A stretch of DNA of 64,000 nt from an uncultured Planctomycetaceae bacterium (GTDB lineage: Bacteria > Planctomycetota > Phycisphaerae > SM23-33), in contig CAZWAT010000001.1 of NCBI GenBank assembly GCA_964632015.1, positions 1,834 to 65,833 on the forward strand, written 5' to 3'. The notes beneath the pieces are model-generated. The model ran no database searches and had not been told where the DNA came from. It saw only the letters and a list, made by a program, of their open reading frames with translations. How positions within the stretch are numbered: the stretch's first letter is position 1; every line of letters starts with the position of its first letter. Position numbers and translations under genes: made by a program. Positions 10,050 through 61,741 of the stretch are shown here, in pieces.

Positions 10050-10067
10050 ATCGCCAACCTCTTGTGG

Positions 10068-40449: not shown

Positions 40450-40458
40450 CATCGCCCC

Positions 40459-41394: not shown

Positions 41395-41459
41395 GGTTGA
41401 GGTGTATAGCCCAACAAAGCCCTGTTTGCAAGCGGGGCTTGTGCTGGTAAACTATCGGC

Positions 41460-42443
41460 ATGAGAACAGCAAGACGATTCATCAACACGCTCAGGCCTGG
41501 TGAGGCAATCGAAGAGGTCTTTCTTGTCAGGGATAAGGATCTTCGCACAACTAAGACCGGTGATCTGTACATTACGTGTTCACTGGTGGATCGTAGCGGC
41601 CACCTTCCCGCGAGGATGTGGCAGGCGAGTCAGACCATATTCAACGCGATAGAAACCAATGGTTTTCTTCAAGTCAAGGGGCGCACAGAAGATTACCGCG
41701 GCACGCTTCAGTTTGTGATAGACTCGTGCAGGCCTTGCAAACAGGAGAAAGTCGACCTGGCCGATTTTCTGCCCGTCAGCGAGCAGGACATTGAGCAGAT
41801 GTGGGGCGAGTTGATCGAGATCATGCGGTCGGTAAAGGACGAGTGGCTGCGAAGGCTAATCAAGAAATTCCTGGAAGATCACGACCTTGTCGCCGCCTAC
41901 AAGAGATCCCCCGCCGCCACGGCCATGCATCATAATTTCGTAGGTGGGCTGCTCGAACACACGCTCAACATCGCCAAGGCGGCAGAGGCTTTACTGCCCC
42001 TTTATCCCAAGGTCAATGCGGACCTGGTGCTGACGGGCATTTTTATGCATGACATCGGAAAGACCGCCGAGCTTTCATCCGGCACGAGCATCCAATACAC
42101 TGACCAGGGCCAGTTGATCGGGCACATCACGCTTGCGACACTGTGGATCGAACAGAAGGCATCAGAGCTTGCACAGCAGTATGGAGAACCTTTCCCCAGA
42201 AGGACGCTCGACCTGGTTGAGCATATTGTCCTGTCGCACCACGGTTCTTTGGAGTACGGTTCGCCTAAGCTTCCGGCGATACCCGAAGCCTTCATGATTC
42301 ACTATCTCGATAACCTCGACGCCAAGATGTTCATGACGACACAGCAGATCGAGAACGATCCGGATGAATCGTCTGACTTCACGCCGTATCAGCGGGAGTT
42401 GCAGGTTCGGCTGTACAAGAAATCACGCGAGCTCAAGCAGTAG
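41460..42443 (+). CDS. YhaM-like 3'-5' exoribonuclease (OB-fold plus HD domain)
   Basis: N-terminal OB-fold region followed by an HD domain: HHNFVGGLLEHTL...GIFMHDIGKTAEL...HIVLSHHG. Confidence 0.55.
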   Translation: MRTARRFINTLRPGEAIEEVFLVRDKDLRTTKTGDLYITCSLVDRSGHLPARMWQASQTIFNAIETNGFLQVKGRTEDYRGTLQFVIDSCRPCKQEKVDLADFLPVSEQDIEQMWGELIEIMRSVKDEWLRRLIKKFLEDHDLVAAYKRSPAATAMHHNFVGGLLEHTLNIAKAAEALLPLYPKVNADLVLTGIFMHDIGKTAELSSGTSIQYTDQGQLIGHITLATLWIEQKASELAQQYGEPFPRRTLDLVEHIVLSHHGSLEYGSPKLPAIPEAFMIHYLDNLDAKMFMTTQQIENDPDESSDFTPYQRELQVRLYKKSRELKQ

Positions 42444-42468
42444 GTCAACAGCCTCGCGGTCATTCGCC

Positions 42469-42945
42469 TCAGAGCTTCATAATGTAGTGCACCTGTTGCG
42501 CCACTTCCTTGAACCCAAGCGATGGATACAGGTGCCTACCTACCTCGTTTATCGTCAGAGTCTCTATTTTCGCCTGTTCGAGCTTGAGCGAACGGAAATA
42601 CTCCAAGGCCGCGGTGAGCAGCTTTCTGCCCACGCCATGCCCCTGTGCCTTGGCCCGAACTGCCAGGTTGTTGATAATTCCCCGTGACGCGATCTTGTTC
42701 ACGCTCGTGGTAGCATAACCCACCAGTTCACCATCCAGCTCGGCGATAAACGCGCCGGAAAGGTTGTCGGCAAGTTCCTTCCTGATGGTATTGCCCTTGA
42801 TCTCGATCCACGAGGCGGGAGCGCCGATCATGCTTTCTATCATCGCGTCTATCGAAACCGGGCCGAAAACCTCTTCGGTTACTGCGATTATGGCATCGAC
42901 ATCGCTCTCCCGGGCCTGCCTGATTATCACCGATCCTTCAACCAT
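42469..42945 (-). CDS. GNAT-family N-acetyltransferase
   Basis: ATG at 42945 with GAGGGA RBS. Acetyl-CoA-binding motif NLAVRAKAQGHGVGRKLL. Confidence 0.7.
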   Translation of the reverse strand: MVEGSVIIRQARESDVDAIIAVTEEVFGPVSIDAMIESMIGAPASWIEIKGNTIRKELADNLSGAFIAELDGELVGYATTSVNKIASRGIINNLAVRAKAQGHGVGRKLLTAALEYFRSLKLEQAKIETLTINEVGRHLYPSLGFKEVAQQVHYIMKL

Positions 42946-42977
42946 CAACCGTACTCCCTCGATTAAAATCAACCCTG

Positions 42978-44207
42978 TCAACCTTTTGCCATTTGTCCTG
43001 CCAACAACCCGCTCGAAAAAGCCCATTGCAGATTGAAGCCGCCACTGGGTCCATCAAGATCCAGTATTTCACCCGCAAAGTAAAGTCCATCGGTCAACCT
43101 GCTTGCGAGAGTCCGGGGATCAACCTCCGAAAGATCGACGCCGCCCCTTGTCACCATCGCAGCCGACCAGCCCTCGGTCGCGGTTATGGTAAGTGTGGTC
43201 CTGCCAAGAATCCGCGCCAGCTTTCTGGCATCCGCGGAGCTGACATGAGCACATGCGACACCGCATTCTGTTCCCGCCGCCTCGCATAACGCACGTGCCA
43301 GCCTGGAGGGAATGAAATCAGCAAGGTATGACGCGACACTTCTTCTACCATGCTCCCGCCTGGCCAGATCGAGTCGACTCAACCACTCACGTTCATCAAT
43401 TCCGGTCATCGCGAGCGTCAACTCGACTGCCTTTGCCCCTTCGCCAAGAATCCTGCCCACCTCGCTCGAAATATTCAGCACCGCCGGGCCCGAAATACCC
43501 CTGTGCGTGAACAAGACCGAGCCTTGCTCGCTCGCCCGCAGGCCGGGGACGTGGATCCGCACCTGTACGTCATCCATACTTATGCCCGCACAACCGCCCG
43601 GCCAGCGTTCCTTCGTCACCAGCGGCACCAGGGCCCATGTGGGCAGAACAATTTTATGCCCGCACTGCCTGGCGAGCTTGTATCCGATATCGCTCCCACC
43701 AAGGGCGGGATATCCCCTGCCCCCGCAACACAGAATCACTCTGGTGCTGGTGATCGTACCTTCGGATGTTTCAAGCCCCACCACCTTTCCATGGCTCACC
43801 TTCGGCGCCTTGGCCGCCGAGTTGAACATGAACCGCACGCGCCGGGTTCGGCACTCGTCGAGCAAGGCGTTCAGAACATCGCTGCTTCGTTGCGAAACAG
43901 GGTATACATGCACCCCGTCGGGCGAGAATGTCCGCACGCCGAGGTTTTGCAGCATCTCCCTTAAACCCGCCGGGTCGATCGCCTTGAGCGCGGGTCTGAT
44001 GAATCCGCCCCGTTTTCCGAACGCCTTGACGAACTCCTTGATTCCAAGCGTGTTGGTGACGTTGCATCGTCCGCCACCGCTGGCGAGGAGTTTCAACCCC
44101 GGCCGGGACATCCGCTCCAAAACCGTCACCGAGGCTCCGTGGGCGGCTGAAATGGCGGCTGCGAGCCCCGCGGGACCCGCACCCACTATAACCACATCGC
44201 TCGACAT
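42978..44207 (-). CDS. HI0933-family FAD-dependent flavoprotein (BaiN/aminoacetone-oxidase-like)
   Basis: DVVIVGAGPAGLAAA dinucleotide-binding start, the GGGRCNVTN motif, and a C-terminal YFAGEILDLDGPSGGFNLQWA motif typical of the HI0933 family. The exact start is uncertain (44207 or 44222). Confidence 0.7.
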   Translation of the reverse strand: MSSDVVIVGAGPAGLAAAISAAHGASVTVLERMSRPGLKLLASGGGRCNVTNTLGIKEFVKAFGKRGGFIRPALKAIDPAGLREMLQNLGVRTFSPDGVHVYPVSQRSSDVLNALLDECRTRRVRFMFNSAAKAPKVSHGKVVGLETSEGTITSTRVILCCGGRGYPALGGSDIGYKLARQCGHKIVLPTWALVPLVTKERWPGGCAGISMDDVQVRIHVPGLRASEQGSVLFTHRGISGPAVLNISSEVGRILGEGAKAVELTLAMTGIDEREWLSRLDLARREHGRRSVASYLADFIPSRLARALCEAAGTECGVACAHVSSADARKLARILGRTTLTITATEGWSAAMVTRGGVDLSEVDPRTLASRLTDGLYFAGEILDLDGPSGGFNLQWAFSSGLLAGQMAKG

Positions 44208-44359
44208 GTGTCGGCTTTCCATGACGCTATCATGTTGCAGGTGCACTCATGATTCAACTGCAAAGCGCGGGTTCGGCGATCCCGGTCGACCTGCCCCGAT
44301 TCCCAGCAGGTCATGCATCGGCAAAAGGGCAACCGACGCCGCATCCAGGAGGCACGAAC

Positions 44360-47300
44360 ATGTCGGAAAAGCACTCGACAGAACCTCAAAACACCCAAGC
44401 CCACCACCAGCCTCGAAGACGCCGCTGGCCATGGATATTGCTTGCGGTAGCTGTGATACTTATCGTCATGGTACTTCTGCTGCCTATCATCCTTTCAACG
44501 TCCGCTGGACCCAACCTGATTAAAACCGTCGTTAATCCACGAATAAGGGGCTCGATATCGGTTGAGGACATGAATGTCTCATGGGCAGGCCCGACAAGGC
44601 TCATAAACCTTCGAGCCTTCGACCCACAGGGCAGAGAGGTTCTGCATGTCAACGAGGTGGTCTATAGTGCGGGGCTATGGGGGCTGGCGACATCAGCAAT
44701 GGATTTCGACACTCTCGACGTTGACCAGCCACATGCTGTTGCACACGTCGACGAAGACGGAACAGTCTCACTTGCCCAGGCTTTCGAGCCGGTTGAACCC
44801 AGTGAACGCGACACGCCCACGCCTAGGGTTAGAGGCAGGATGAGGGTCCGCTCTGGACAAATGCGCATAATGCACGCCCGCGCGATGGAGCAACCCTACA
44901 CCATCCAGAACATCGATGTGGATGCCAACTTCGACTCCCTTAACGATATCAGCGGAACTTTCAGCGCACAGACCCATCAGCAGGGGTTGATCACCGGTGA
45001 ATTCAACGCACGCAACCTGTTTCCCGAGGACGGCTTGGACCTTCAGCGCGTCAGCGGTGATGTGTTGGTGCGGACGGCTGAGCCTATCGACCTGGCGCCA
45101 TTGGCGCTGGCGTTGGGAAGGGCGAACATGACCGGTATAGTGAATCTGCTTCTACATGCCCGTATGGATAATGGAGTGGGCGGGGGCGAATTGGATATGG
45201 AAATAGCAAACCTTTCGGCTGCGGCTGACGACGCCCGACCAGAGCCCATTACTGTAAGTCTTGTCGGGGAATTCGTAGCAGATGCCGAGGAAATTCGCGG
45301 CGGCGCTAACTTGTCGGCAGCGGGCGAAGTTATCACCCGCTTCAGTTGGCGCAACACCGATGCGCCGCCTCTTGACGCGGACAATATCATCTCGGCGGTG
45401 ATGACCGGCAAAAACGTCGCCATGCCTGCCTTCTCATTGGTCGCCGATGGACAGGTGGATGTAGCGCGTCTATCAAGGGCGATTCCGGCGCTGATGTCGA
45501 TCAGGCCCGGAACCGCGATACAGCGAGGCCAGTTCGTGCTTCGGGACGTTCAGGCGTCCGGAGGACCTCAGCCGAGCTGCACAGGCGTGCTTGCACTTCT
45601 CAACGCGGCGGTGCTTCAAAACGGGCAATTGAGCGAATGGCAGGACATCGAGATTACGCTTGACGGCAGAGTGATTGAAGGCACAGGCCTGCATCTGCGC
45701 CACATGATCGCCCGGGCACAGTGGGGGCTCATCGAAGCAACGGGAACGCCCGCCAGGATGGACTCGCAATACCGCATCGATCTTGCGGGTTTTCAGTCCC
45801 AGGTGACACAGGTCTTCGACATGGGCCAGACCAGGCTGACGGGTGTCATCGACGGCAGCGCACAGGTGATCAGGGCAACCGACCAGCGATTTGATTATCG
45901 GCTCGACACTAACGTCACGGACTTCGCCTACCGTGACGACCAGACGCACATCGAGGTGCAGACGGGAAGAATCGACCAGCAGGGAACGATTATCCTTGAA
46001 GATAACAGGTTTCGCGGGCTCGACGTTGCACACACCACGCTGAACCTTGACGATGATCTGATCATCGGCGCCCAAGGTCAACTCGACCAACAGCAGGGGG
46101 CGATCGAGGGAACTGTGAATATCCAGCGGGTATCGGTGGGATATCTCGACACCCTTCTTACCGGTTTCACGGCCCAGACTCCCCGAGAACTCGGCGGTAG
46201 CATCTCGGGCGTGGCGAGGCTGCATCGTCCCCATGCACAATCGCCACTTTTGAGCGAGGGTACTGTGACTATTCGCGATCTTCGCGACAGAGACGCCATC
46301 ATCGAGCCCGGCGATACGGTGCTGAAATGGACAGGCCTGGAGTATGACCTGCCATCCTCGTTGGCGCTTGAGCAGGCTAGTCTCACAAGCGCGTCGACCA
46401 ATGCCACCGCTTCGAATTTTCGCTATGAACCCCAGCCCGCAATGGTGCTCACCGGCCTTGTGGAGGCGTCGTCAGATCTGCGTGGGGTGTCGCGCATTGT
46501 GCGGGGCCTCGCCCAGGTCGATCTGCCGGAGATGGCCGGTCAGTTAAACCTGACCCACACTTTCGCACCCGCTGGGGTCGAGGGCATCATACCCGTCCAC
46601 GGCAGGATGCTTGTGAGTGGTTTCGTATTGGGCCAGGGTACGCAGGCGTTGAGGGAGGATGAAATCGATCTGGTCTACGCCGCGACTATCGACCCGCAGA
46701 GGGACATCCTTCAGCTTGATCAGGCCAGGCTATCATCGGCAATCATCTCTACGCAGGCTCGGGGAACCATAGAAGAGCTTTCAAATCGTCTCGTGATGAA
46801 CATTTCCGGCGATTATCAGGGCGACTGGAATCGAATCACCACTGCAATTCACCAGGTCGCCCCGGACACTCGCGAAAACATAGCGATGTCAGGCAGCAGC
46901 GCGGGGGACTTCGTCATAACCGGACCTGCACGCGATGCCACCGTCACGCCGGCGTTCAGAGGTGTCGAAGCTCGAACGGCTGTGACTTGGAATTCAGGCA
47001 GGCTTTATGGTATCGAAATTGGCCCGGGAAGGCTCGATCCTTCATTCAGCGACGGCAGGCTCAGCGTACCGGACACGCAGGTGTCCGCCTCCGATGGCGT
47101 CATCCGTATAGGTGGAATTGTGGACCTCACGGGAGAGGACACCTCGTATGCTCACGCCGGGCAGTTGTTCGTCATGGAAGGCGTGCGAGTCAATCCCGAT
47201 ATGTCGCGTGAAATCCTCAGCAGGGTCAACCCGCTATTCTACAGGCTTGCGCAGGTGGATGGACTGGCTTCGCTGGAGGTGTCAGAGCTGTTCCTGCCAT

Positions 47301-47935
47301 TAAGCGACGCCATCTTGGAGCGAGGCAGCGGCAGCGGCGTGCTCGATCTATCAGAGTTGACTCTACAGCCGCTGGGTCCGATGGCCTTGCTTGTTCGCAT
47401 GATGGGGCTTTCCGAGGGGCCACAGCGGGTTATACCTCATCCGGTTCAATTCGCCATTGAGCGGGGCAGGTTGGCGTTTCGGGAGTTCAGACTGGACATG
47501 GGCGGGCAGGTGCTTTTCTTTGACGGGTCAGTCGGCTTCGACGATTCGGTCGACATGGTCGTATCGGTGCCCGTTGGCGCAGAGCTTCTCAGGAGTCTTG
47601 GCGCCAGAGGCGCGGTTGATGACTGGGCAGAGGTGCTTGATGGCGTGAGGATTAGCATACCCATTGTCGGCACGAGGGATCGGCCGCAGCTTGACACAGC
47701 ATCTGTCAACATTCGCCCACTCATAGACCAGGCCGTCCAGACGCTTATTCAGCAACAGCTTCGGGAGCGCCTGGCGCCTCGCTCAGCACAGGATGGTCAG
47801 GACGATCAGCCGGGTCCCTCGCTACCACCACAACGCAGTGAAGACGAGGAGGAGCCTCGCCCAAGCACGCAGCCGGCGGATGAAGACGAAGCCCCACAGC
47901 CCGATAGGCGGTTTCCGTTTCCGTTCCTCAGGTAG
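44360..47935 (+). CDS. AsmA/TamB-like giant envelope protein (N-terminal TM anchor, long beta-rich domain, acidic Pro-rich tail)
   Basis: ATG at 44360 with AGGAGG RBS. RRRRWPWILLAVAVILIVMVLLLPIIL anchor followed by PNLIKTVVNPRIRGSISVEDMNVSW..., as in AsmA-family proteins. 1191 aa. C-terminal DEDEAPQPDRRFPFPFLR. Confidence 0.5.
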   Translation: MSEKHSTEPQNTQAHHQPRRRRWPWILLAVAVILIVMVLLLPIILSTSAGPNLIKTVVNPRIRGSISVEDMNVSWAGPTRLINLRAFDPQGREVLHVNEVVYSAGLWGLATSAMDFDTLDVDQPHAVAHVDEDGTVSLAQAFEPVEPSERDTPTPRVRGRMRVRSGQMRIMHARAMEQPYTIQNIDVDANFDSLNDISGTFSAQTHQQGLITGEFNARNLFPEDGLDLQRVSGDVLVRTAEPIDLAPLALALGRANMTGIVNLLLHARMDNGVGGGELDMEIANLSAAADDARPEPITVSLVGEFVADAEEIRGGANLSAAGEVITRFSWRNTDAPPLDADNIISAVMTGKNVAMPAFSLVADGQVDVARLSRAIPALMSIRPGTAIQRGQFVLRDVQASGGPQPSCTGVLALLNAAVLQNGQLSEWQDIEITLDGRVIEGTGLHLRHMIARAQWGLIEATGTPARMDSQYRIDLAGFQSQVTQVFDMGQTRLTGVIDGSAQVIRATDQRFDYRLDTNVTDFAYRDDQTHIEVQTGRIDQQGTIILEDNRFRGLDVAHTTLNLDDDLIIGAQGQLDQQQGAIEGTVNIQRVSVGYLDTLLTGFTAQTPRELGGSISGVARLHRPHAQSPLLSEGTVTIRDLRDRDAIIEPGDTVLKWTGLEYDLPSSLALEQASLTSASTNATASNFRYEPQPAMVLTGLVEASSDLRGVSRIVRGLAQVDLPEMAGQLNLTHTFAPAGVEGIIPVHGRMLVSGFVLGQGTQALREDEIDLVYAATIDPQRDILQLDQARLSSAIISTQARGTIEELSNRLVMNISGDYQGDWNRITTAIHQVAPDTRENIAMSGSSAGDFVITGPARDATVTPAFRGVEARTAVTWNSGRLYGIEIGPGRLDPSFSDGRLSVPDTQVSASDGVIRIGGIVDLTGEDTSYAHAGQLFVMEGVRVNPDMSREILSRVNPLFYRLAQVDGLASLEVSELFLPLSDAILERGSGSGVLDLSELTLQPLGPMALLVRMMGLSEGPQRVIPHPVQFAIERGRLAFREFRLDMGGQVLFFDGSVGFDDSVDMVVSVPVGAELLRSLGARGAVDDWAEVLDGVRISIPIVGTRDRPQLDTASVNIRPLIDQAVQTLIQQQLRERLAPRSAQDGQDDQPGPSLPPQRSEDEEEPRPSTQPADEDEAPQPDRRFPFPFLR

Positions 47936-48094: not shown

Positions 48095-49339
48095 CTAAAA
48101 ACAGTCGCACACGGCCCGAGCTGCGAGCATTGCTGCGCCCTTGGATGCGTTTTCGGTGTTTTTGGTCGCAATGAACTCGCTACCGATCAGTTCGGTCTTG
48201 AGTCTCAACCAGAATTGACTCTTCGCGCCTCCGCCGGATGAAACGACTTTCGCGGGCATATCGTGATCGCACAGCCTGTCGATCAGTTTCTGAACAATCT
48301 GCGCGTTCTTGTTCATTATCTCCAGAACCGGCGCTCCGTGAGGCCCGGCTGGCGCGCCTTCGTGGGCACGTTGGGCAAGAAGCACAAGCTGGTCAATGCT
48401 AATTTCCGGAGCATGGTTGCGCTGATACTGTTCGAGCATGGAAGCGCCATAATTGTCAAACGCAAGACGATAATACTTGTCCCCGACGCCCGCGGCTACA
48501 CAGCATCCAGCAAGGGGCCTGAAACTGTCGCAATAGCAAATGCATGCCTGCACGGTTCCGGTTGATTCGGCGACTTGGGCTATTTGTCCCAGTCCGGCGC
48601 CAATGGCCGAGGCGTGATGATCGAGCGTTCCCGCAACCAGGGGCACACCGGGACTAAGCCCCAACAACCCTGCTGATGATGTCGTGGTGATGACCTCCCC
48701 GCTTCGGCTGGGGGTTGATAGCATATCCTCGTCCAACCCCACGCACACCAGTCCCCGCCGCCACCATCGTCTGTTGGGTACATCCCACATCGCCAGCATC
48801 TGGGCCGTGGATTCATCCCCGCCACGAACGCCAGTAAGCGCATAGACCAGGTAATCACTTATGGACATCACCTTGTCTACGCGACGCCAGATGCCCGGTT
48901 CGTTCTTCCGAATCCACATCAGCTTTGCCAGCGCCAACCCTCCAGAGCAATCGTTCCCGATGCCGGTCGTGGACAGAAAATCGTCCTCCGCGAAGAGCCT
49001 CCTGAGACTGTCATCAATATTCCTGACACGTTTGTCCGACCAGCTTATCAAGGGCGTCAGCGGCTGGTCATTTCTGTCAAGCAGTATGAACGTATTCGCC
49101 TGCGATGAGTACGACACGGCCTGAATATCTCGCCCCGAGATGCCCGCGGCGTTGGTCGCCATATCCATTGCCTCGTGCAGCGAGTGCCAGAAGGATTTGG
49201 CATCGATGGTTCGCATGTCGCCGTCACAGAGCGTCGGAGCCGGTACCCGACCCAGACCAAGCAATTCGCCATCCAGGCTGAATATGCCCACCTTGAAATA
49301 GCTCGTCCCAAGATCGACACCAACGACCGACTTCATCAA
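48095..49339 (-). CDS. FGGY-family carbohydrate kinase
   Basis: N-terminal VVGVDLGTSYFKVGIF is the FGGY motif 1. The product is 414 aa and is the last gene of the nag-type operon. Confidence 0.7.
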   Translation of the reverse strand: MMKSVVGVDLGTSYFKVGIFSLDGELLGLGRVPAPTLCDGDMRTIDAKSFWHSLHEAMDMATNAAGISGRDIQAVSYSSQANTFILLDRNDQPLTPLISWSDKRVRNIDDSLRRLFAEDDFLSTTGIGNDCSGGLALAKLMWIRKNEPGIWRRVDKVMSISDYLVYALTGVRGGDESTAQMLAMWDVPNRRWWRRGLVCVGLDEDMLSTPSRSGEVITTTSSAGLLGLSPGVPLVAGTLDHHASAIGAGLGQIAQVAESTGTVQACICYCDSFRPLAGCCVAAGVGDKYYRLAFDNYGASMLEQYQRNHAPEISIDQLVLLAQRAHEGAPAGPHGAPVLEIMNKNAQIVQKLIDRLCDHDMPAKVVSSGGGAKSQFWLRLKTELIGSEFIATKNTENASKGAAMLAARAVCDCF

Positions 49340-50676
49340 TCTTCGCTCCTGGTGAGTTCGAGTGTCGCCTCAACCAGCATGCTTCCGCTTGTGTAATCGA
49401 ACAGGCTGTTGGACGCCTCATACCCGCCAACCTCGGCGGCGTCTTTGGTCACAATGTAACCCTGAAGCTCCCCGTTGGCGCAGGACATCACAAACGTGCC
49501 ATCCCTCATCGCCTTCACTGCCAGCGAATACTCAACGAATATCTCGCAAGGCCAACCGACAAAGTTCCAGTCGCCCAACGATATAACCTGAACTTCCGCC
49601 GGAAGGACTGAATCGTAAATGCGATCAAGCTCCCCGTTCTGTGCAGACATCGCGAGCGAAAGAGTTTCTTCGGCTCCGAACCAGTCGCACTCCGCAGTGC
49701 GGATTTCGGTTCGAGCAGCCCCGCTACTGCGAAGGCCTTCAAGTCTGGCGATTGCATTGTCCAGTTGCGCCTGGGCCTGTTCGACCGGCGGGAAGCTCCG
49801 CTTGCGTAGGTCCAGGAACTTGCGGGCAACCCTGATATCGGCGCGGTCGCAATAATGTGCCTGTTCAAGGACCTTTTCCACCGCGCTGGCAAAAATCGCA
49901 CCGAGTCTCTTCGCTTCGGTAAATGTATTTTCTTTTGTGACGTGCCTTGGGCTCTGGTTTCCGGCGGGACCCATGTGGTTCAGTATCACACAGTTCTTTC
50001 CGAGCGTTCCCATCTGAAGGATCTGCCTGGCCAGACCCGGAAAATCTCCGCTCACCAGCGTGCTGTCCTCGTGCAACACTGTCGGATGCATCGAGCAGAT
50101 GACCATCGCCGCCAGGTATGCCTGGTCATCCTTTTTTCTCACGAGAAGCACCGGCATGCGTGGGTCGGCGGGGCCGGTGGGGTCCCGTCTGTTGGTGCCC
50201 AGGCCTGTTCCATCGGCCTGCACAACCGACATCTCTGCCAGTACGGGCGCGGAATGGGCTTCGACGCCTGCCTGCACAATTCCATCTTCCACGAGCGTCA
50301 GATACGCCCCGTCAGGCTGGGGTACTGCCTCGTCGCATGTGCTGCTTGCATGACGAATCATCATCGGACCCGAATGCGTGTGCGTGGCAGTTATCATTAT
50401 GTTGCCCGCCGGCACGCCAGTCTTCTGTTCAATCCGCTGGCGCGCCGATGCGACGATGTCCTGCGGCACATAGATAAGGTCGTTGGCGATGATCATCACC
50501 TCTTCGCCACCGTCGGACACATACAGCGCCGAACTCATCAAGGAATCATGCACGCCAGTGCTATAACGCTTAACGTGGGGGTATCCATAGAGAAACTGCG
50601 AATCGGTGGGCGTGATATCCACTGCCGACGCACCGGCCAATAATCCTTCACCTTGTTGTAACGTGTGTTTTGTCAT
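49336..50676 (-). CDS. Neutral/alkaline ceramidase-family amidohydrolase (PF04734-like), short form
   Basis: AVDITP...LYGYPHVKRYSTGVHDSLMSSALYVSD...NIMITATHTHSGP aligns with the N-terminal catalytic region of bacterial neutral ceramidase (ADITG..GY....GIH.R..ARAFV......ATHTHSGP). At 446 aa it lacks the C-terminal tail domain. Confidence 0.6.
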   Translation of the reverse strand: MTKHTLQQGEGLLAGASAVDITPTDSQFLYGYPHVKRYSTGVHDSLMSSALYVSDGGEEVMIIANDLIYVPQDIVASARQRIEQKTGVPAGNIMITATHTHSGPMMIRHASSTCDEAVPQPDGAYLTLVEDGIVQAGVEAHSAPVLAEMSVVQADGTGLGTNRRDPTGPADPRMPVLLVRKKDDQAYLAAMVICSMHPTVLHEDSTLVSGDFPGLARQILQMGTLGKNCVILNHMGPAGNQSPRHVTKENTFTEAKRLGAIFASAVEKVLEQAHYCDRADIRVARKFLDLRKRSFPPVEQAQAQLDNAIARLEGLRSSGAARTEIRTAECDWFGAEETLSLAMSAQNGELDRIYDSVLPAEVQVISLGDWNFVGWPCEIFVEYSLAVKAMRDGTFVMSCANGELQGYIVTKDAAEVGGYEASNSLFDYTSGSMLVEATLELTRSED

Positions 50677-50678
50677 TT

Positions 50679-51611
50679 TTAATACCCCACATCCCAGGTG
50701 GGTTCGATGTTCATTGCAGCCGTTTGCGAAACCCGCACATCGGTGCGAAGCGTCTGGCAGATTGATTCAGGAACCAGCGGCGTCACCGGGCCATGCATCA
50801 CAAGCCTGCTCGTGAGGCGTTGCCATGACGACACCGTGCCCTGCACGCTTATGCCGTGCGACTGAATTCGATGCTTCGCCGCAATCACCTGCGCCGGGCC
50901 TATCGTTGCCGCCTTTGGTGGAACCATACCCGTGTCTCCGCTATATCCAAAGCACCCATGCAGAGAGTTCTGGGCGAGCGTGAACGGGCTGAGCGTGCAG
51001 ACTCTTGGACCCATCTGCTTCCATTCCTCAAGCGTACCGGAGAATTCGGGGCAATCCGGTTCGATGAAGGCGAGGTGTCCAGTCCACCCCGGGCCGCTGT
51101 AGCACACATCCACGCCTCCGAGGTCTTCCATCATCTTGCCATAATCGGCGAGGTTTTCATTGGTCAGGCCGATCATCTGATCTTCCTTAGGCCGGAGCTT
51201 GGGGTCGATCTGCGAATAGAAGAACTTTTTCAACGCGTAACCAAAGCTCATCGGCCAGGTTTCGGGGGCGATCACGCCGTCTTCATTGGCGTATTCGTCC
51301 ATGTTGAAGGTGTAAAGCTTGCTGCAATCGACGTTCATCTCGTTGATGAGATAAGCGACCCGACGGTACATCGGCCAGGGTTGCGGGATGATCATCACGA
51401 GGCGCCTTCCCTCATCAGATGCCCGCTTGATGCGAAGGAACATGCCAGTGACGAAATCCCACTCCATCTCGTTATCGCGATAAATGCGGATCCGGTAATC
51501 GGGATTGGGGTGCTTGGTCAAATCTTCGGTTTTGATCGCCCGTACACGCGCGAGGACTTCTTTGTCTCTGAATGGAACATGTTTTGAGGGGCTGTATTCG
51601 AACTGCGTCAT
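50679..51611 (-). CDS. nagB: Glucosamine-6-phosphate deaminase/isomerase-like (NagB superfamily)
   Basis: ATG at 51611; the ORF-track start is TTG. GVDVCYSGPGWTGHLAFIEP resembles the NagB/6-phosphogluconolactonase active-site region. Confidence 0.55.
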   Translation of the reverse strand: MTQFEYSPSKHVPFRDKEVLARVRAIKTEDLTKHPNPDYRIRIYRDNEMEWDFVTGMFLRIKRASDEGRRLVMIIPQPWPMYRRVAYLINEMNVDCSKLYTFNMDEYANEDGVIAPETWPMSFGYALKKFFYSQIDPKLRPKEDQMIGLTNENLADYGKMMEDLGGVDVCYSGPGWTGHLAFIEPDCPEFSGTLEEWKQMGPRVCTLSPFTLAQNSLHGCFGYSGDTGMVPPKAATIGPAQVIAAKHRIQSHGISVQGTVSSWQRLTSRLVMHGPVTPLVPESICQTLRTDVRVSQTAAMNIEPTWDVGY

Positions 51612-51624
51612 TAAGAAAACCCTT

Positions 51625-52809
51625 TCATTGTCTCTTGTTAAATACGCATCTGCCGCCAACCCATACGGTCTGGACGGTCAGGTTAGAATCCAAAAGCGTC
51701 ATGTCTGCGTCATAATCGGGCTTGATGCTTCCCTTGTTGTGATCCAGCCCCAGCACCGCGGCGGGATTTCGGCTGGCCATATCCACGGCTGTGGGAAGAT
51801 CCAGCTTAAGCATCTTTACGGCGTTTCGAATCGCGGCGTCCATCGTCAGGCCGCTACCGGCGAGGGATCCGGGGCTGCGTGAGTCACTGGTCTTTCTCGC
51901 GGGGCCTCCGGGATATCGAAACTCTATCTTCGCCCCGGCGAATTCGTATACACCCGGTGCCTTGCCCGCACCGACGTTCGCGTCGGTAATCAACGACACC
52001 CCGTGGGCACCTTTGCATTGCAGGGCAAGGGCCACTGCGACAGGGTCGACATGCTCACCATCGAGTATGAAGTCAACGCTCACGTTGGGGTCGGCAAGAA
52101 TCGCCTCCACGGCGCCGCATTGTCTGACACCGGGCTCACATTGCTCGGGGACGGGAAACACATCATAAAAATGTGTCGCATGCCGGGCACCGGCATCTAT
52201 CGCCGCTCGGGTCTGTTCAACGTCCGCCCCGGTATGCGTGATAAAGACGGGACTACCACCAGCCGACATCGCCTTGATGATGGATGGGGCCCCGTCTATC
52301 TCCGGCGAGACGCTGAATATCGCGCGATATTGCCCGCTCGCTGCCCGAAGCCGATGCACCCGATCAACATCGGCGTCGCGAAGCACTTCGGGGGGCAATG
52401 CGCCGCTGATCGCAACGAACGGGCCTTCCAGATGAATACCCAGAATCGCGCTACCCTGCGACACAACCGACGCAAGAGATGCGACGAACCGCTCGTCCTG
52501 ACCGGGGGGCAATGGGCACACGGTGGGAAGGAACCCCGTAACACCATATTTGGGCAGTTCCCGGCAAAGACCCGACAGATCGTCCGGGCCATTGTCCACG
52601 AGATAATCGCCGCTGCCGTGGATATGCAGGTCGATGAAACCCGGCACAAGGTACATGTTTTCGCCATCGATAACTTCGCCGGAGTCATCGCCAGACCCCG
52701 CGGCGTCTTCAACGCGGAATATCCGCCCGTCTCGGCAGGTCACACATCTGCGGGACGTGATAGCACCACCAGAAATAATTCGTACATTATTTATTGTCAA
52801 GTCGCTCAT
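51625..52809 (-). CDS. nagA: N-acetylglucosamine-6-phosphate deacetylase
   Basis: ATG at 52809 with AGGAGGA RBS. Metal-binding GFIDLHIHG and downstream NagA-like motifs. Confidence 0.75.
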   Translation of the reverse strand: MSDLTINNVRIISGGAITSRRCVTCRDGRIFRVEDAAGSGDDSGEVIDGENMYLVPGFIDLHIHGSGDYLVDNGPDDLSGLCRELPKYGVTGFLPTVCPLPPGQDERFVASLASVVSQGSAILGIHLEGPFVAISGALPPEVLRDADVDRVHRLRAASGQYRAIFSVSPEIDGAPSIIKAMSAGGSPVFITHTGADVEQTRAAIDAGARHATHFYDVFPVPEQCEPGVRQCGAVEAILADPNVSVDFILDGEHVDPVAVALALQCKGAHGVSLITDANVGAGKAPGVYEFAGAKIEFRYPGGPARKTSDSRSPGSLAGSGLTMDAAIRNAVKMLKLDLPTAVDMASRNPAAVLGLDHNKGSIKPDYDADMTLLDSNLTVQTVWVGGRCVFNKRQ

Positions 52810-53527
52810 TTCTTCCTCCTGCAAATACCTCGCACGCGAGGGCGACTCGCTCGCCGCGATAATACGATTCGAACACCGCCACAGCCCGGCCCGAGGGCAG
52901 ATAAATAACGTCTCGCGCCTTGAGTAGCGGGCTGCCCGGCTCGACGTCGAGCAGTTCGACATCCGCGGCGCCTGCCTCGACCGCCTCTATCATCTGCCTG
53001 GTGTGCGATGCGGTAAGCTGGGCCTTCTCAAGCCAGATATGCAGGAAGTCAACCTCAAGCAGCATCTGCTCATCTATGCACCCTGCAAGATTCAGCGGGA
53101 TGTACCCGTTATCGTAAGCCAGCGGTTCTTTGCCCGAGAAGTCCAACCTTCGGCAGGTCAAGCAACGCTGGTCGGCGCCTATATTCAGTATGCGGGCAAT
53201 GTCATTCGGTGGCGAATCCTCGCTGAGATGCACGAGCTCTCGATGCATGGCGGGTATCTGAGACAACATCGAACCGCTGAAATCGCCTTCCTGAATGACA
53301 ACCTTCCTGGGCCTGCTCGACCGCACAAACGTGCCCCGCTTGACGAATCGCTCGATCAATCCCTGCTCGCAAAGCAGTCTCAGCGCGTGCCTGACTGTCA
53401 CTCGCGAAAGGTTGAACTGGCGGCATAGATCGAATTCCGACGGGAGCTTTTGCCCAGCGCAGTAGTGGCCGCTGACAATCTGCTCACGCAATGTGTTTAG
53501 AACCCGTTGATAAGCCTTCTGTGCCAT
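52787..53527 (-). CDS. GntR-family (HutC/NagR-like subfamily) transcriptional regulator
   Basis: N-terminal winged HTH (QKLPSEFDLCRQFNLSRVTVRHALRLLCEQGLIER) and a C-terminal UTRA-like domain. It overlaps nagA by 23 nt. Confidence 0.75.
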   Translation of the reverse strand: MAQKAYQRVLNTLREQIVSGHYCAGQKLPSEFDLCRQFNLSRVTVRHALRLLCEQGLIERFVKRGTFVRSSRPRKVVIQEGDFSGSMLSQIPAMHRELVHLSEDSPPNDIARILNIGADQRCLTCRRLDFSGKEPLAYDNGYIPLNLAGCIDEQMLLEVDFLHIWLEKAQLTASHTRQMIEAVEAGAADVELLDVEPGSPLLKARDVIYLPSGRAVAVFESYYRGERVALACEVFAGGRNERLDNK

Positions 53528-53533
53528 TGCCAA

Positions 53534-53545
53534 TTGTTATAACAA
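53534..53545. promoter_or_regulatory. Putative GntR operator palindrome
   Basis: Perfect palindrome TTGTTATAACAA fits the GntR-family t.GT..AC.a core. It lies 6 nt upstream of the regulator start codon, in the divergent intergenic region. Confidence 0.45.
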
Positions 53546-53658
53546 TAGAAAGGATTTATGTCAACCGTCCGCCCAAGACATGATGACACGAGGCAGCAAC
53601 GGTGATTTGCTCTTGACGAGATTGTTCGTTTATGTTAGATTTTGGTCAAAGATAACAC

Positions 53659-54444
53659 ATGGGCAAGAAACAACCATTATCGGCTGAGCAAAGGCAATCT
53701 GAGATCCGCACGCTTCTTCAGGTGGGACGAGAGCTTAGCATCAGCGAGCTTGCACTGCGTTTTGGCGCCAGTGAAATGACCATACGTCGGGACCTTTCCA
53801 AGCTTCAGCAGAGGGGACAGGTTCTTCGCACGCATGGTGGCGTTGTTCCCGCGGATCGGATGATGTTCGAATTCGATTTCGCCGCCCGTCAGCGCGAAAA
53901 TCTCGCCGCCAAGCGCGCCATCGCCCGCGAGGCCCTCAAGTTAATCAACCCTCCCTGCCGGATCATCTTGGACACCGGTACGACGGCGCTTCAGCTTGCT
54001 TACGAGCTTCAGAGTTTCAACGACATCTCCGTCATCACTCCAAGCCTTGCCGTCGCTTCGGCGTTGCAGTTCGCCGAGGGTGTGCAGACAGTTCTGCTTG
54101 GTGGAATTATTCGCAAGGGAAGCCCCGATTTGACCGGCGCGCTGACTGAAAGCATGTTGGAGATGTTCGCCGCCGACATCGCATTCCAAGGGGCAGACGG
54201 AATCGACACGGACGGCTTTTGCTACAATAGAGACCTGCGAATCGCCAAGGTCGACCAGAAGATCCGCCAGCGAGCACAACATGTCTACGTACTGGCAGAC
54301 AGTTCAAAGCTTAACAGAACGGCACTGGTCAGGCATGGATCCATTCAGCAGGTAGACGGGCTGATAACCGACAACAAGGCCGACATGGATTTCATCACAC
54401 AACTGAAGACCATCGGCACTAGTGTAATAATCGCCGAACTTTGA
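53659..54444 (+). CDS. DeoR-family transcriptional regulator
   Basis: N-terminal HTH LSISELALRFGASEMTIRRDLSKLQQRG with a C-terminal DeoR sugar-phosphate-binding domain. Confidence 0.8.
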   Translation: MGKKQPLSAEQRQSEIRTLLQVGRELSISELALRFGASEMTIRRDLSKLQQRGQVLRTHGGVVPADRMMFEFDFAARQRENLAAKRAIAREALKLINPPCRIILDTGTTALQLAYELQSFNDISVITPSLAVASALQFAEGVQTVLLGGIIRKGSPDLTGALTESMLEMFAADIAFQGADGIDTDGFCYNRDLRIAKVDQKIRQRAQHVYVLADSSKLNRTALVRHGSIQQVDGLITDNKADMDFITQLKTIGTSVIIAEL

Positions 54445-54468
54445 ACCTTAACCTACAGGAGAAGTAGA

Positions 54469-55845
54469 ATGACCACGGAAGCACCGTACAAATCACAATG
54501 GGCACAGGTGGACCTCACGAAGGTTCCCAACCTCGTCACCGACTCGATACCCGGGCCTGAATCGAAGAAGCTGCACGCCAGATGCACCAAGCATTTCAAA
54601 GGCCTCAGCGGCCAGGTGAAGCTGTTTCCGGTGGCGTTTGAAGAGGGTTCTGGTTGCACGCTGACGGATGTCGATGGCAATAAGTACATCGACTTTTCAT
54701 CGGGCATCTATGTCACCACCCTCGGACATTGCCACCCGAAGGTAACAGAGGCAGTGCAGAAGTACGCCGGCAAGCTGATGAACTGTCACGACTTCACAAC
54801 CAGGATCAAGACCCTGCTGGTCGAGAAGCTCGCGCAGATCCTTCCGGGCGACTTGAACGGGTTTCAGTTCTATGACTGTGGAACCGCTGCCGTTGAGGCG
54901 GGTCTGCGAGTGCTCAGGGCGGCGAGCGGTAAAAACGAGATGATCAGCGCCTTTTACGACTTCCACGGAAAGACCTACGGCGCCGTGTCGTTGGCTCACA
55001 TACGAAGCCAGGTCTATGGCCGAGTGAGAGCGCCGGGCATGCACATGGTTCCCAGGCCTGATCCCTATCGCCCGATGTGGACAAAGGCCGATGGCACGAT
55101 AGACACCGACAAGTACATCGACTTCTACGCCAAATACATCGATATGGGAACCGTCGGCGACGTGGCCGGGTTCGTACTCGAGCCCATCCAGGGCTGGGGC
55201 GGCTCGGTTGTTCCACCTGATGACTTCTTCCCCAAACTTCGCAAATTCTGCGACGATCATAATATCCTGCTCATGGCCGACGAGGTGCTTACCAGTTGGG
55301 CGAGAACAGGCAAGTGGCTGTGCATGGAGCACTGGGATGTTCTGCCCGACGTGGTTTCAATCGGCAAGGGGTTCGGGAACGGTTTCCCCGTCACATGTGT
55401 TGCGGTTCGCGATAAACACAAGGAGTCTTTCGAGTCCATCAGCGCATCGAGCAGCTACGGCGGTAATCCGATGGCATGTGCGGCCGCCCTGGCGTGCACC
55501 GAGGTCATCGAGGACGAGGGTCTTCTTGCCAGGTCCACACACCTTGGCGAACTGGCGATCAAGCGAATGGAAAAGATGAAGGCAGAGCACAAGATCATCG
55601 GCGACGTTCGCTGCGTCGGTTGCCTGATGGGCATTGAACTCGTCAAAGATCGTCAGACCAAGGAACCGTTCGGCGAAGCGGGAACAATGGTCTACCAGAA
55701 GGCCTTTAGAAAGGGCCTGGCGTGGATACCCGCCGGTCACATCCTTCGAATGAGCCCGCCGGTGGTCATGGACGACGAAACCCTTCTCAAGGGCCTGGAC
55801 ATGATCGACGAGGCGATTGGCGAGACCGAGAAAGAACTGGCATAA
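54469..55845 (+). CDS. Class-III pyridoxal-phosphate aminotransferase
   Basis: Fold-type I class III features: SGIYVTTLGHCHP, ADEVLTSWARTGKW and the lysine region VVSIGKGFGNG. Confidence 0.75.
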   Translation: MTTEAPYKSQWAQVDLTKVPNLVTDSIPGPESKKLHARCTKHFKGLSGQVKLFPVAFEEGSGCTLTDVDGNKYIDFSSGIYVTTLGHCHPKVTEAVQKYAGKLMNCHDFTTRIKTLLVEKLAQILPGDLNGFQFYDCGTAAVEAGLRVLRAASGKNEMISAFYDFHGKTYGAVSLAHIRSQVYGRVRAPGMHMVPRPDPYRPMWTKADGTIDTDKYIDFYAKYIDMGTVGDVAGFVLEPIQGWGGSVVPPDDFFPKLRKFCDDHNILLMADEVLTSWARTGKWLCMEHWDVLPDVVSIGKGFGNGFPVTCVAVRDKHKESFESISASSSYGGNPMACAAALACTEVIEDEGLLARSTHLGELAIKRMEKMKAEHKIIGDVRCVGCLMGIELVKDRQTKEPFGEAGTMVYQKAFRKGLAWIPAGHILRMSPPVVMDDETLLKGLDMIDEAIGETEKELA

Positions 55846-55856
55846 AAGGAACACCT

Positions 55857-56993
55857 GTGAAGAACATCAAATTCGGCATTATCGGTTGTGGCCTGATGGG
55901 ACGGGAGTTCGCAAGCGCCGTCGCTCGCTGGTGCCACCTGACCGACGTATCTGCCCGACCCGAGATCGTGGCGATATGCGACACCAACACCGCGCTGTTC
56001 GACTGGTACAAGGGAAACTTCGATTCAGTCAAGCAGACGACGACAGACTACCACGAACTGCTCGCCAACGAGCAAGTCGAGGCGGTGTACTGTGCGCTTC
56101 CCCACAACCTGCACCAGCAGGTCTACTGCGACATCATCTCGGCGGGCAAACACCTGCTGGGCGAAAAACCCTTCGGGATAGACAAACCCGCCAATGACGC
56201 GATATGCAAATGCTCAGCCGAGCATCCAGAGGTATTCGTCAGATGCAGCAGCGAGTTTCCGTTCTTCCCCGGCGTTCAGCGGATCGGGCGGATGATAGAG
56301 GCAGGAGCATTCGGACGAATCATCGAAGTCAACAGCTACTTCATGCATTCAAGCGATCTCGATCCCAATAAGCCCATCAACTGGAAACGCATGATCGAGG
56401 TCAACGGCGAATACGGCTGCATGGGCGACCTTGGCATGCATGCCTGCCATGTGCCTTTCCGTGCGGGCTGGGTTCCGCGCAACGTGCGAGCGATTCTGTG
56501 CGACATCATGACCCACAGGCCCGACGGCAAGAGTAACATGGTTCCCTGCCGAACATGGGACAACGCGATGCTGCTTTGCGAAACGGGCGACGCCAATGGC
56601 GACTTCCCGTTGACTATCAAGACCCATCGCATCGCCCCCGGCGAGAAGGACACCTGGTCGCTTGAAGTTCTGGGCACGAAGGCGTCGGCAAGATTCTCGA
56701 CGAAGAATCCCAGAAGGCTCGAAGTGCTTGAATACCCCGGCCCCGAGCAGATCTGGCAGCAGATCGACATGGGTTACGAAAGTACGTTCAAGACGATAAC
56801 CGGTGGCATCTTCGAGTTCGGGTTTACCGACGCGATTCTCCAGATGTGGGCTGCGTTCGTGGATGAGCTTGCGACAGGCAAGACCAGAAGCGCATTCGCC
56901 GGGTGCATAAAGCTGGATGAAGTCGCTATGAGCCACCGGCTCTTCACCGCGGCACTGAAGTCATACGCCCAGGGAACAACAGAAGCTGTGTAG
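55857..56993 (+). CDS. Gfo/Idh/MocA-family oxidoreductase
   Basis: GTG at 55857 with AAAGGAACA RBS, 11 nt after the aminotransferase stop. Rossmann start IKFGIIGCGLMGREF. Confidence 0.7.
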   Translation: MKNIKFGIIGCGLMGREFASAVARWCHLTDVSARPEIVAICDTNTALFDWYKGNFDSVKQTTTDYHELLANEQVEAVYCALPHNLHQQVYCDIISAGKHLLGEKPFGIDKPANDAICKCSAEHPEVFVRCSSEFPFFPGVQRIGRMIEAGAFGRIIEVNSYFMHSSDLDPNKPINWKRMIEVNGEYGCMGDLGMHACHVPFRAGWVPRNVRAILCDIMTHRPDGKSNMVPCRTWDNAMLLCETGDANGDFPLTIKTHRIAPGEKDTWSLEVLGTKASARFSTKNPRRLEVLEYPGPEQIWQQIDMGYESTFKTITGGIFEFGFTDAILQMWAAFVDELATGKTRSAFAGCIKLDEVAMSHRLFTAALKSYAQGTTEAV

Positions 56994-58515: not shown

Positions 58516-59871
58516 TTATTGCGGGTTGTCCCGAGGTTCGAGCCTGAAAAAGATCTTCGGCAACGGCCCCACAACCTCAGCCGAGACCGGCTGGTTGACC
58601 CGGACTTCCACCTGGCGCTCAAGCCAGCTTTCTGTGGGGCTTCTGTCAAGATCGGTCAGGACGATATACGCCTCGACGTGCTGGGCCTGAAGTTTGTCGA
58701 GATCACTCTTGGGGCCTTTGAACGTAATTTCCTTGCGCCAGTCGGCTGGGTCTCGTCGACGCAGGACGTATCGCTCCCACGTGCCGTCCTCGGGCCAGGA
58801 TTGGGGCGTCAGCAGTCGAACCGGAATCGTCAATGTTCTTTCACCAGTCAGTTGAGCTATCTTGCCCGCCACTTCCACGGTCGGCTGCTGGGGTCTGACC
58901 GGAATACCTCCGATCATCGTCTGAAGCTGCACCGGGCCGGGCGGCTCGAATGAACGCAGATCGACATTGACCGTATCGAGCACTATCCTGGGCTGGGCTC
59001 GTAGAGATTCCTCGTTTGACCGTGCGACGGCAACGCTGACCTTGGACGGTATTACCTGTGGATCTTCAAGCGTCGCCCCGCTGGATACCAGTTTGACTTC
59101 CACATCATTCACGGTGACAGATCGGTCAAGCTCCAGTCGGACTTCCTCGGGATACGCCGACGTCAGCGTCAGATTGCTCCTGCTGAACGCGGAACTTGAG
59201 CGAAGAAGCTCCTGTGTGGCAACTACGTTGGCGCCCTCGCCGAATCTACCCACGTCCACAACTATGTCAGTGCCCACGCGGGAAAGACTGGCAAGGCCTT
59301 CCCTAGGCCCCTCAGCAGTGAAGGTCACGTCAACCTCCCGCCGGTGCAGGGCGCCCTGGCGATCGGCAAAGACAAGGTCGCCACCCTCTGGAGTTGTAAG
59401 CACCAACCTTCCCCGGAACTCCTGCGTGGGTTTGACGAGCACGCTTCGCACGAACCTGGGGGCGATGCTGCTGATGCTCAGCCCATTTTTCAAAAGATTG
59501 GTGCGGGCTTCGAGTATCTCGGACAACTGGAACGTGTTTTCACCCAGTCGCCCCTGCGAGACATCGAACTCCACAAGCCACCCCGCGTCGCCAAGCTCTC
59601 TACTGAACCGCTCGATGCTGCTGTTGCTGCCCCGCACGGTAAATTTCACTTCATACTCGTGACCATCACCTTCAAGCTGAATCTGCCCCGAATTGCCCGT
59701 AGTAAGGCGAACACGAATGGTTATGTCTTTGCTTTCAGTCTTTTCAAGGTCGGCGTATACCCATATCAGAAGCGTGACCACAAGCACCCAAACAAATGTC
59801 TTCGAGCCCGAAAGCCACCATTCTCGCGAGAACCGCGGAGGAGAATCCACAAGCGCCAGGCGTTTGCTCAT
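58516..59871 (-). CDS. cdaR: YbbR-domain protein CdaR (diadenylate cyclase regulator)
   Basis: N-terminal TM (FVWVLVVTLLIWVYA) followed by repeated YbbR-like beta-rich modules. It overlaps cdaA by 4 nt. Confidence 0.65.
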   Translation of the reverse strand: MSKRLALVDSPPRFSREWWLSGSKTFVWVLVVTLLIWVYADLEKTESKDITIRVRLTTGNSGQIQLEGDGHEYEVKFTVRGSNSSIERFSRELGDAGWLVEFDVSQGRLGENTFQLSEILEARTNLLKNGLSISSIAPRFVRSVLVKPTQEFRGRLVLTTPEGGDLVFADRQGALHRREVDVTFTAEGPREGLASLSRVGTDIVVDVGRFGEGANVVATQELLRSSSAFSRSNLTLTSAYPEEVRLELDRSVTVNDVEVKLVSSGATLEDPQVIPSKVSVAVARSNEESLRAQPRIVLDTVNVDLRSFEPPGPVQLQTMIGGIPVRPQQPTVEVAGKIAQLTGERTLTIPVRLLTPQSWPEDGTWERYVLRRRDPADWRKEITFKGPKSDLDKLQAQHVEAYIVLTDLDRSPTESWLERQVEVRVNQPVSAEVVGPLPKIFFRLEPRDNPQ

Positions 59872-60722: not shown

Positions 60723-60831
60723 GCGTCACCGGTTTAACCGCTTATTATACTACATAACATCGGCAACGGATCGCTTGTGACACTAGCCCCCGTGCAAGAA
60801 AATTTGCGTAACTTGAGAAAAAATGAGTAAT

Positions 60832-61677: not shown

Positions 61678-61741
61678 GGCATTTTACATCGGCGTCGATC
61701 CAGTGCAACATGACGATCATATCTCACCGACAATAACAGCA

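Follow-up and report, generated by a model that had tools for sequence, protein, structure and literature searches.

In a 64,000-nucleotide stretch of DNA from an uncultured Planctomycetaceae bacterium (contig CAZWAT010000001.1; this whole stretch is called the window below), nine genes at 48095-56993 include one for a short protein with the catalytic domain of neutral ceramidase, here called CER-like. Our preferred reading, to which we assign a probability of about 60%, is that the nine genes work together as an inducible unit for the breakdown, in the cytoplasm, of a non-canonical N-acylated amino sugar. Within this unit, CER-like most likely strips the acyl group from a soluble amino sugar and not from a membrane lipid, because the protein is short, cytoplasmic and encoded beside a sugar kinase in a recurring amino-sugar cluster. 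What would be new is an amino-sugar catabolic operon with a recruited enzyme fold known only from lipid metabolism, apparently widespread in uncultured glycan degraders; no description of the CER-like family or of its cluster was found in the full-text literature.

The operon on the minus strand is opened by a GntR/HutC-type regulator of 246 amino acids (aa) (52787-53527; 66 bits with PF00392 and 81 bits with UTRA, PF07702) and continues with a NagA-like metal amidohydrolase, a paralogue and not a canonical NagA (394 aa, 51625-52809), a NagB-superfamily isomerase/deaminase-like protein (NagB-like; 310 aa, 50679-51611), CER-like itself, a predicted tail-less, cytoplasmic zinc amidase of the neutral-ceramidase fold (446 aa, 49336-50676), and an FGGY-family sugar kinase of an orphan subfamily (413 aa, 48095-49336). 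These five genes had been named in this order in a preliminary description of the locus; the open reading frames (ORFs) were confirmed, and the same five genes, with products of these lengths, are called on two public metagenome contigs of identical sequence to the window. The end of the GntR gene overlaps the start of the NagA-like gene, gaps of 13 nt and 2 nt precede the NagB-like and CER-like genes, respectively, and the stop codon of CER-like overlaps the start codon of the FGGY kinase in TGATG, from which the two are predicted to be translationally coupled. The preliminary description was correct for these five genes and incomplete for the unit as a whole, since it overlooked a divergent operon on the plus strand (53659-56993) which belongs to the same functional unit of nine genes and is the most informative clue to the chemistry of the cluster. 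This operon encodes a DeoR-family regulator of the AgaR/GlpR-like kind (53659-54444; DeoRC 149 bits, with HTH_DeoR), a class-III, GABA-aminotransferase-like pyridoxal phosphate aminotransferase (54469-55845; Aminotran_3 308 bits) and a Gfo/Idh/MocA sugar oxidoreductase (55857-56993; PF01408 and PF22725) with a GTG start 12 nt past the aminotransferase stop. The unit is flanked by unrelated housekeeping genes, which encode a DUF748 protein at one end and HflX at the opposite end.

The two operons diverge from a regulatory region of 131 bp (53528-53658) with sigma-70-like hexamers on both strands. It holds the perfect 14-bp palindrome ATTGTTATAACAAT (53532-53545), 5 nt upstream of the GntR start, whose core occurs once in the 64 kb of the window against 0.02 expected copies and again in one related locus (L061), 136 nt upstream of CER-like in the equivalent GntR/CER divergent region. 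The palindrome was spotted by eye, its conservation is limited to this one other locus, and the repeat finder reported no inverted repeat in 53528-53658; we regard it as a candidate operator of the HutC type.

CER-like matched the ceramidase model PF04734 with 56.9 bits (cut-off 32.1) over residues 14-219 only. Partial matches to this model have been regarded as genuine partial domains (PMC4443539). Unlike in that case, the ceramidase domain of CER-like is complete. The motifs GVHDSL (residues 41-46) and ATHTHSGP (residues 97-104), named as catalytic in the preliminary description, are present, and in an alignment of 17 diverse homologues H99, H101, R163, H197, S242, E378, Y407 and Y419 were invariant. 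Profile and pairwise alignments place these residues on the THTHSGP, NR, H(S/P)T, GN(L/Q)SP, (A/G)E and Y..YE motifs of the neutral ceramidases from Pseudomonas aeruginosa (2zws) and human (4wgk), which we take to be the zinc ligands (HxH His, second His, Glu and Tyr) together with the catalytic His, Arg, Ser and Tyr. Because the invariant residues sit on these motifs, an amide-hydrolysing chemistry like that of ceramidase is expected, and the family assignment holds for sequence, fold and catalytic residues. Judged by these alignments, CER-like is predicted to be a soluble protein with a complete neutral-ceramidase catalytic domain and zinc site.

The likeness to the neutral/alkaline ceramidases (PF04734 plus PF17048) concerns the fold of their catalytic N-terminal domain, whereas the remaining properties set CER-like apart: it shares only 17-19% identity with 2zws and 4wgk, is shorter than the ceramidases (630-690 aa), and is found in sugar-catabolic operons. 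The C-terminal tail domain is missing, as previously noted, with no match to it in the Pfam scan; an N-terminal hydrophobic segment or signal peptide is absent from CER-like and from 16 homologues, and the whole-protein ceramidase equivalog NF041649 gave 27.1 bits against a cut-off of 1200. Many of the residues invariant among the 17 sequences are Arg or other polar residues. In the AlphaFold2 model, residues 26-42, 102-120 and 202-209 have a predicted local distance difference test score below 50 and coincide with the three most conserved loops of the family, which are specific to it in comparison with neutral ceramidase; the low confidence may reflect mobile active-site lids that are ordered by substrate or metal.

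None of the enzymes of the cluster reached a curated equivalog cut-off. For the two amino-sugar enzymes, the earlier labels 'nagA' and 'nagB-like' are justified as statements of homology and do not extend to canonical status: NagA-like scored 207.7 bits with TIGR00221, just under the cut-off of 225.65 (match to NagA in the PDB, E 2e-39), and NagB-like 43.9 bits with TIGR00502 against 236.9 (match to NagB in the PDB, E 4e-7), with no Pfam match, PF01182 included. All 39 NagA-like orthologues from related clusters keep the HxH, E, H, H metal ligands and the catalytic D, and read 'THFYDVF...x(D/E)PGVRPCGAVEA' where canonical NagA has 'THLYNAM...HREPG'. The Arg of 'HREPG', presumably the 6-phosphate-binding residue of the canonical enzyme, has given way to C, T, Q, I or K in 39/39, and a 5-aa insert, 'VRPCG', brings a new conserved Arg in every one of them. 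Among 35 NagB-like orthologues, compared with an E. coli NagB reference sequence, the equivalents of D72, H143 and E148 are kept and the motifs MDEY and GHLAF(I/L)EP conserved, the TGGT phosphate loop is deleted, K, R or Q stands in place of R172, and most sequences retain the equivalent of K208. These altered substrate-binding elements bear out the earlier view that the cluster does not serve plain N-acetylglucosamine (GlcNAc) catabolism.

The kinase belongs to the FGGY family and not to the ROK/NagK type, as family scans confirmed (FGGY_N 151 bits; FGGY_C 24.1 bits, under the cut-off of 27). It missed the cut-off of all 12 curated FGGY models that it matched, the best being XylB with 171.7 against 380 bits through the N-domain only, and neither curated models nor PDB sequences allowed a substrate subfamily to be assigned. 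In comparison with its orthologues, the window kinase lacks 27 internal residues of the C-domain and its C-terminus is short; it is the shortest full-length member among 59 kinase-family ORFs of related loci; the GGGA ATP-binding motif is kept. The structures nearest to the aminotransferase, which reached no equivalog cut-off, are archaeal GABA/ornithine-type aminotransferases and racemases. The nearest characterised relatives of the Gfo enzyme are levoglucosan dehydrogenase, scyllo-inositol dehydrogenase and sugar 3-ketoreductases, which carry out redox reactions at the ring carbons of sugars or cyclitols. The DeoR regulator scored 163 bits with the AgaR model (cut-off 260).

A word-indexed search returned 2,888 homologues of CER-like; the 120 listed are nearly all 433-466 aa long and, save for one 99% match, 54-63% identical, and come from metagenome-assembled genomes (MAGs) of several phyla. 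A HMMER scan of 1.84 billion representatives gave 11,367 clusters (50% identity) at E <=1e-3 and 342 at E <=1e-30, and nearly all of the 150 best matches were tail-less. In a scan with one genome per species, relatives were present in 466 genomes. We took the best 80 of these for co-conservation analysis, in which ORFs were called and clustered and families re-mapped by tblastn; two synteny families (f8 and f25) proved to be opposite-strand shadow ORFs and were excluded. The 80 loci stem from 79 uncultured MAGs and one uncultured single-cell genome of Planctomycetota (Phycisphaerae, Pirellulales, Thermoguttaceae), Spirochaetota, Chloroflexota, Bacteroidota, Acidobacteriota, Kiritimatiellales, KSB1 and Hydrogenedentota, and the cluster recurs in at least eight bacterial phyla.

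At least 1.5 kb of sequence follows CER-like in 68 of the loci; the gene that comes next on the same strand there encodes an FGGY kinase in 43 and a phosphofructokinase (PFK) in 7, together 50 of 68. Gene content was counted in 39 well-covered loci, which have an FGGY or PFK kinase in 31, a class-III aminotransferase in 27, a DeoR regulator in 26, NagB-like in 24, NagA-like in 22 and a Gfo oxidoreductase in 21; a glutamate dehydrogenase gene lies between aminotransferase and Gfo in 7. The DeoR gene adjoins the aminotransferase gene in 45/80 related loci, the commonest layout is exactly that of the window, and in Spirochaetota one operon carries DeoR, aminotransferase, Gfo, CER-like and FGGY, all in the same direction. 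Across phyla, the gene set is thus inherited as a whole together with CER-like. The preliminary description had named two outcomes that would count against it, a missing match to the ceramidase family and a lack of co-conservation; the match is significant and the genes travel together, so that it stands on both counts. A CER-like::FGGY fusion of 885 aa (P0158 = MFH1025017.1, Planctomycetota MAG; CER-like 1-440, FGGY ~459-885) lends weak support to the coupling of the two proteins, being a single sequence on a 41-kb contig and possibly a frameshift artefact.

Around this core the loci vary. One set adds the aminotransferase/Gfo operon, at times with a glutamate dehydrogenase or a mannitol-1-phosphate-dehydrogenase-like gene, and a second adds an HpcH-type aldolase, an aldo-keto reductase, a shorter Gfo paralogue, short-chain dehydrogenases and an SSF transporter. 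A subset has a BNR_2 sialidase-like protein, a DapA/NanA-like lyase and an MFS transporter within the operon, and an Anaerolineae locus has a CUT1-type sugar ABC transporter. NagA-like or NagB-like was present in 9/9 well-covered loci with a pyruvate aldolase. The PFK of related loci belongs to a curated pyrophosphate-dependent subfamily (PPi-PFK; 374 bits, cut-off 273), occurs in 11 loci and, in some genomes, adjoins the FGGY kinase or takes its place.

A single unit thus holds two amidases and two systems for nitrogen removal. A NagB-type isomerase/deaminase would act only on a 2-amino-aldose, and the other nitrogen route would consist of a 2-oxoglutarate-linked aminotransferase followed by a keto-sugar reductase. 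This is most simply read as a sign that the substrate has two acylamido groups or that several related substrates are used. In the proposed route, CER-like would hydrolyse the amide of an N-acyl group, probably N-acetyl, on a sugar beyond the reach of NagA; the class-III aminotransferase would move the freed amine to 2-oxoglutarate, which could be regenerated by the glutamate dehydrogenase encoded in some clusters; and the Gfo/Idh/MocA enzyme would reduce the resulting keto-sugar and restore a hydroxyl. The NagA-like and NagB-like paralogues would then take off the 2-acetamido group and convert the 2-amino-aldose to a ketose and ammonia, and the FGGY kinase would phosphorylate the sugar for glycolysis, with PPi-PFK as the next enzyme where present. 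The substrate most likely belongs to the sugars that bear a second acylamido group at a position other than C2. Candidates include 2,4- or 2,3-diacetamido sugars from the surface glycans of bacteria and hexosamine fragments from di-N-acetylated nonulosonic acids, the latter a possible source to which the sialidase, lyase and transporter genes of some loci point. We put forward only tentatively, and consider it rather unlikely, that the cluster is the first catabolic route for di-N-acylated 'rare' cell-surface amino sugars (2,4-/2,3-diacetamido sugars, bacillosamine-type sugars, legionaminic-/pseudaminic-type fragments), with the ceramidase-fold enzyme as its second N-deacetylase.

Several observations weigh against the proposed catabolic route for an N-acylated amino sugar. 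It has been read from gene context, and the order of the steps, the position of the amine and the nature of the acyl group are our deductions. To our knowledge, there is little precedent for class-III aminotransferases acting on ring amines of free sugars. Within the window, no transporter or glycosidase gene adjoins the cluster. The presence of PPi-PFK (374 bits against 273, in the 11 loci mentioned) suggests a product like fructose-6-phosphate, and a model with unphosphorylated 6-deoxy substrates (bacillosamine, legionaminic or pseudaminic fragments) is weakened by this operon-encoded enzyme. The retained K208 equivalent of NagB-like and the new Arg of NagA-like make an anionic substrate, with a phosphate or a carboxylate, possible. 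Finally, the aminotransferase is missing from 12 of the 39 well-covered loci, in which NagB-like, CER-like and FGGY are present, and at least 7 have aminotransferase, Gfo, CER-like and FGGY without NagA-like or NagB-like; since either half of the pathway can be missing, a single fixed pathway does not fit all loci. As possible substitutes of NagB-like, cupin/FucI-like isomerases were considered and set aside, the effect being too weak (4/15 loci without NagB-like, 4/24 with it).

The preliminary description had left the choice between an N-acylated amino sugar and an amino-polyol. We favour the amino sugar and consider the amino-polyol an unlikely rival. In such a route, a common N-acetylhexosamine such as N-acetylmannosamine (ManNAc, from sialic acid) or N-acetylgalactosamine (GalNAc) would be reduced by a Gfo- or aldo-keto-reductase-type enzyme to an N-acetylhexosaminitol, which would be phosphorylated by the FGGY kinase, deacetylated by CER-like and transaminated at C2 by the class-III aminotransferase to yield fructose-6-phosphate for PPi-PFK. 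The substrate of CER-like would then be an open-chain 2-acylamino-1,3-diol resembling the ceramide head group, the four core genes and the PFK would all be used in sequence, and the tight coupling of CER-like and FGGY would be explained. A precedent for the transamination is GabT1, a class-III aminotransferase of 1-deoxynojirimycin biosynthesis which interconverts fructose-6-phosphate and 2-amino-2-deoxymannitol-6-phosphate. Moreover, polyols and ketoses are the typical substrates of FGGY kinases, the window kinase scored best, below the cut-offs, with the XylB, autoinducer-2 kinase and glycerol kinase models, mannitol-1-phosphate-dehydrogenase-like genes lie within the aminotransferase/Gfo operon at several loci, and PPi-PFK directly follows CER-like in 7 loci. 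However, the NagA-like and NagB-like enzymes would become redundant although over half of the loci have them in the same operon, N-acetylhexosaminitols are not known to occur as a natural pool, and the reduction of an aldose by this Gfo subfamily is an assumption.

An ordinary hexosamine pathway, in which CER-like replaces or supplements NagA for GlcNAc, ManNAc, GalNAc or their phosphates and the aminotransferase/oxidoreductase operon is unrelated, appears quite improbable. NagB-like, CER-like and a kinase occur without NagA-like in 6/39 well-covered loci, so that CER-like could feed NagB-like directly there, and the DeoR regulator resembles AgaR. Similar associations are found for distant tail-less CER-like paralogues on plasmids (25-30% identity, tblastn). 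On plasmids of Devosia (L087), Nitratireductor (L091) and Ponticoccus (L092), the operon comprises LacI, NagB/6PGL-like, SIS, amidohydrolase and CER-like proteins and a sugar ABC transporter, and the Nitratireductor operon adjoins nanE and a ROK kinase gene; in Haladaptatus, CER-like is surrounded by five Gfo genes and by genes for an aldo-keto reductase, a Rid protein and heparinase II/III. The association of this fold with amino-sugar enzymes is therefore old and recurrent, and the plasmid operons that combine NagB-like, SIS, amidohydrolase and sugar ABC transporter genes count in favour of the preferred reading as well. The Devosia, Nitratireductor and Ponticoccus paralogues are in cultured hosts. 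Copies on Agrobacterium and Bacillus plasmids lie in unrelated contexts and were set aside. Against an ordinary hexosamine pathway, the aminotransferase/Gfo pair is linked to CER-like in 27/39 loci and co-directional with it in the single operon of Spirochaetota, CER-like and NagA-like occur together in most loci, and both NagA-like and NagB-like are remodelled.

A lipid substrate, as suggested by the preliminary description, with CER-like cleaving a fatty acyl group from a glycolipid/sphingolipid-type head group or from a lipid-A-type N-acylglucosamine and the cluster consuming the head group, has in its favour that CER-like shares its fold and catalytic residues with an enzyme active on N-fatty-acyl amides, and that lipid A acyltransferase (LpxL-like) and PAP2 genes lie ~7 kb off in the window. 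It is nevertheless very improbable, as a signal peptide, a membrane anchor and a tail domain are all absent from CER-like, these two window genes recur in 0/80 related loci, no lipid-metabolism or fatty-acid-handling gene is co-conserved in the 80 loci, and all conserved partners are soluble-sugar enzymes and sugar transporters of the ABC, MFS and SSF types.

If the amino-sugar reading is correct, a very large and so far unstudied branch of the neutral-ceramidase fold (the 11,367 clusters above) would acquire a physiological role for the first time, and its tail-less proteins would prove to be soluble sugar amidases rather than lipid enzymes, which would correct the automatic annotation of such proteins as 'neutral ceramidase' in MAGs. 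The cluster also defines the conserved genes of a probable amino-sugar pathway that present metabolic reconstructions do not include, in carriers (Planctomycetota, Spirochaetota, Chloroflexota, Bacteroidota, Acidobacteriota, Kiritimatiellales) that turn over complex glycans in sediments and digesters. Should the substrate be a bacterial surface sugar without known catabolism, the cluster would open the recycling of that pool of carbon and nitrogen to study, and should it be a di-N-acylated sugar, anaerobic glycan degraders in many phyla could recycle nitrogen and carbon from bacterial necromass.

Within related clusters, two proteins of ~150 aa with Cys residues (s15 and s19), which have no Pfam or NCBIfam match, and URO-D-like proteins recur (observed in L011, L016, L039, L053, L056, L058, L060 and L070). 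The rest of the window resembles an ordinary chromosomal region of a Gram-negative-type anaerobe (6243-11813, 29511-32636, 39379-47935 and 58516-63214), with genes for the I, A and B subunits of a V-type ATPase, an RND efflux pump, PAP2, LpxL-like and HD-domain proteins, a DUF748/AsmA-like protein of 1228 aa, FolP and a ClC channel. The gene for a DAC-type cyclic di-AMP synthase adjoins one for a 451-aa protein without a Pfam match.

Among known systems, a subset of the loci resembles sialic acid utilisation loci (sialidase, NanT/SiaT, NanA, NanOx, NanK/NanE, NagA/NagB) in its BNR_2 sialidase-like protein, DapA/NanA-like or HpcH-type aldolase, MFS and SSF transporters, Gfo-family oxidoreductases and NagA-like and NagB-like enzymes. 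In contrast to sialic acid loci, the loci of this subset are without NanK, NanE or an AGE epimerase, the window is without the upstream sialic-acid genes, and CER-like and the aminotransferase have no role in the catabolism of N-acetylneuraminic acid (Neu5Ac). With canonical GlcNAc/GalNAc catabolism (NagA-NagB with NagK or a phosphotransferase system; AgaA-AgaI/AgaS with AgaR) the cluster has in common a regulator of the HutC or DeoR type, an N-deacetylase of the amidohydrolase superfamily that depends on metal, and a deaminase/isomerase of the NagB superfamily with catalytic Asp, His and Glu. It differs in that the NagA-like and NagB-like enzymes fall below the cut-offs and have altered phosphate-binding elements, and in having an FGGY kinase, a second amidase (CER-like) and the aminotransferase/oxidoreductase pair. 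The order of chemistry proposed for the cluster would be that of ectoine degradation (DoeB, DoeD, DoeC) and acetylornithine metabolism, where N-deacetylation is followed by class-III transamination to a carbonyl and by an oxidoreductase; the families of the amidase and the oxidoreductase differ, and in the cluster the partners are Gfo/Idh/MocA, FGGY and NagB-like enzymes.

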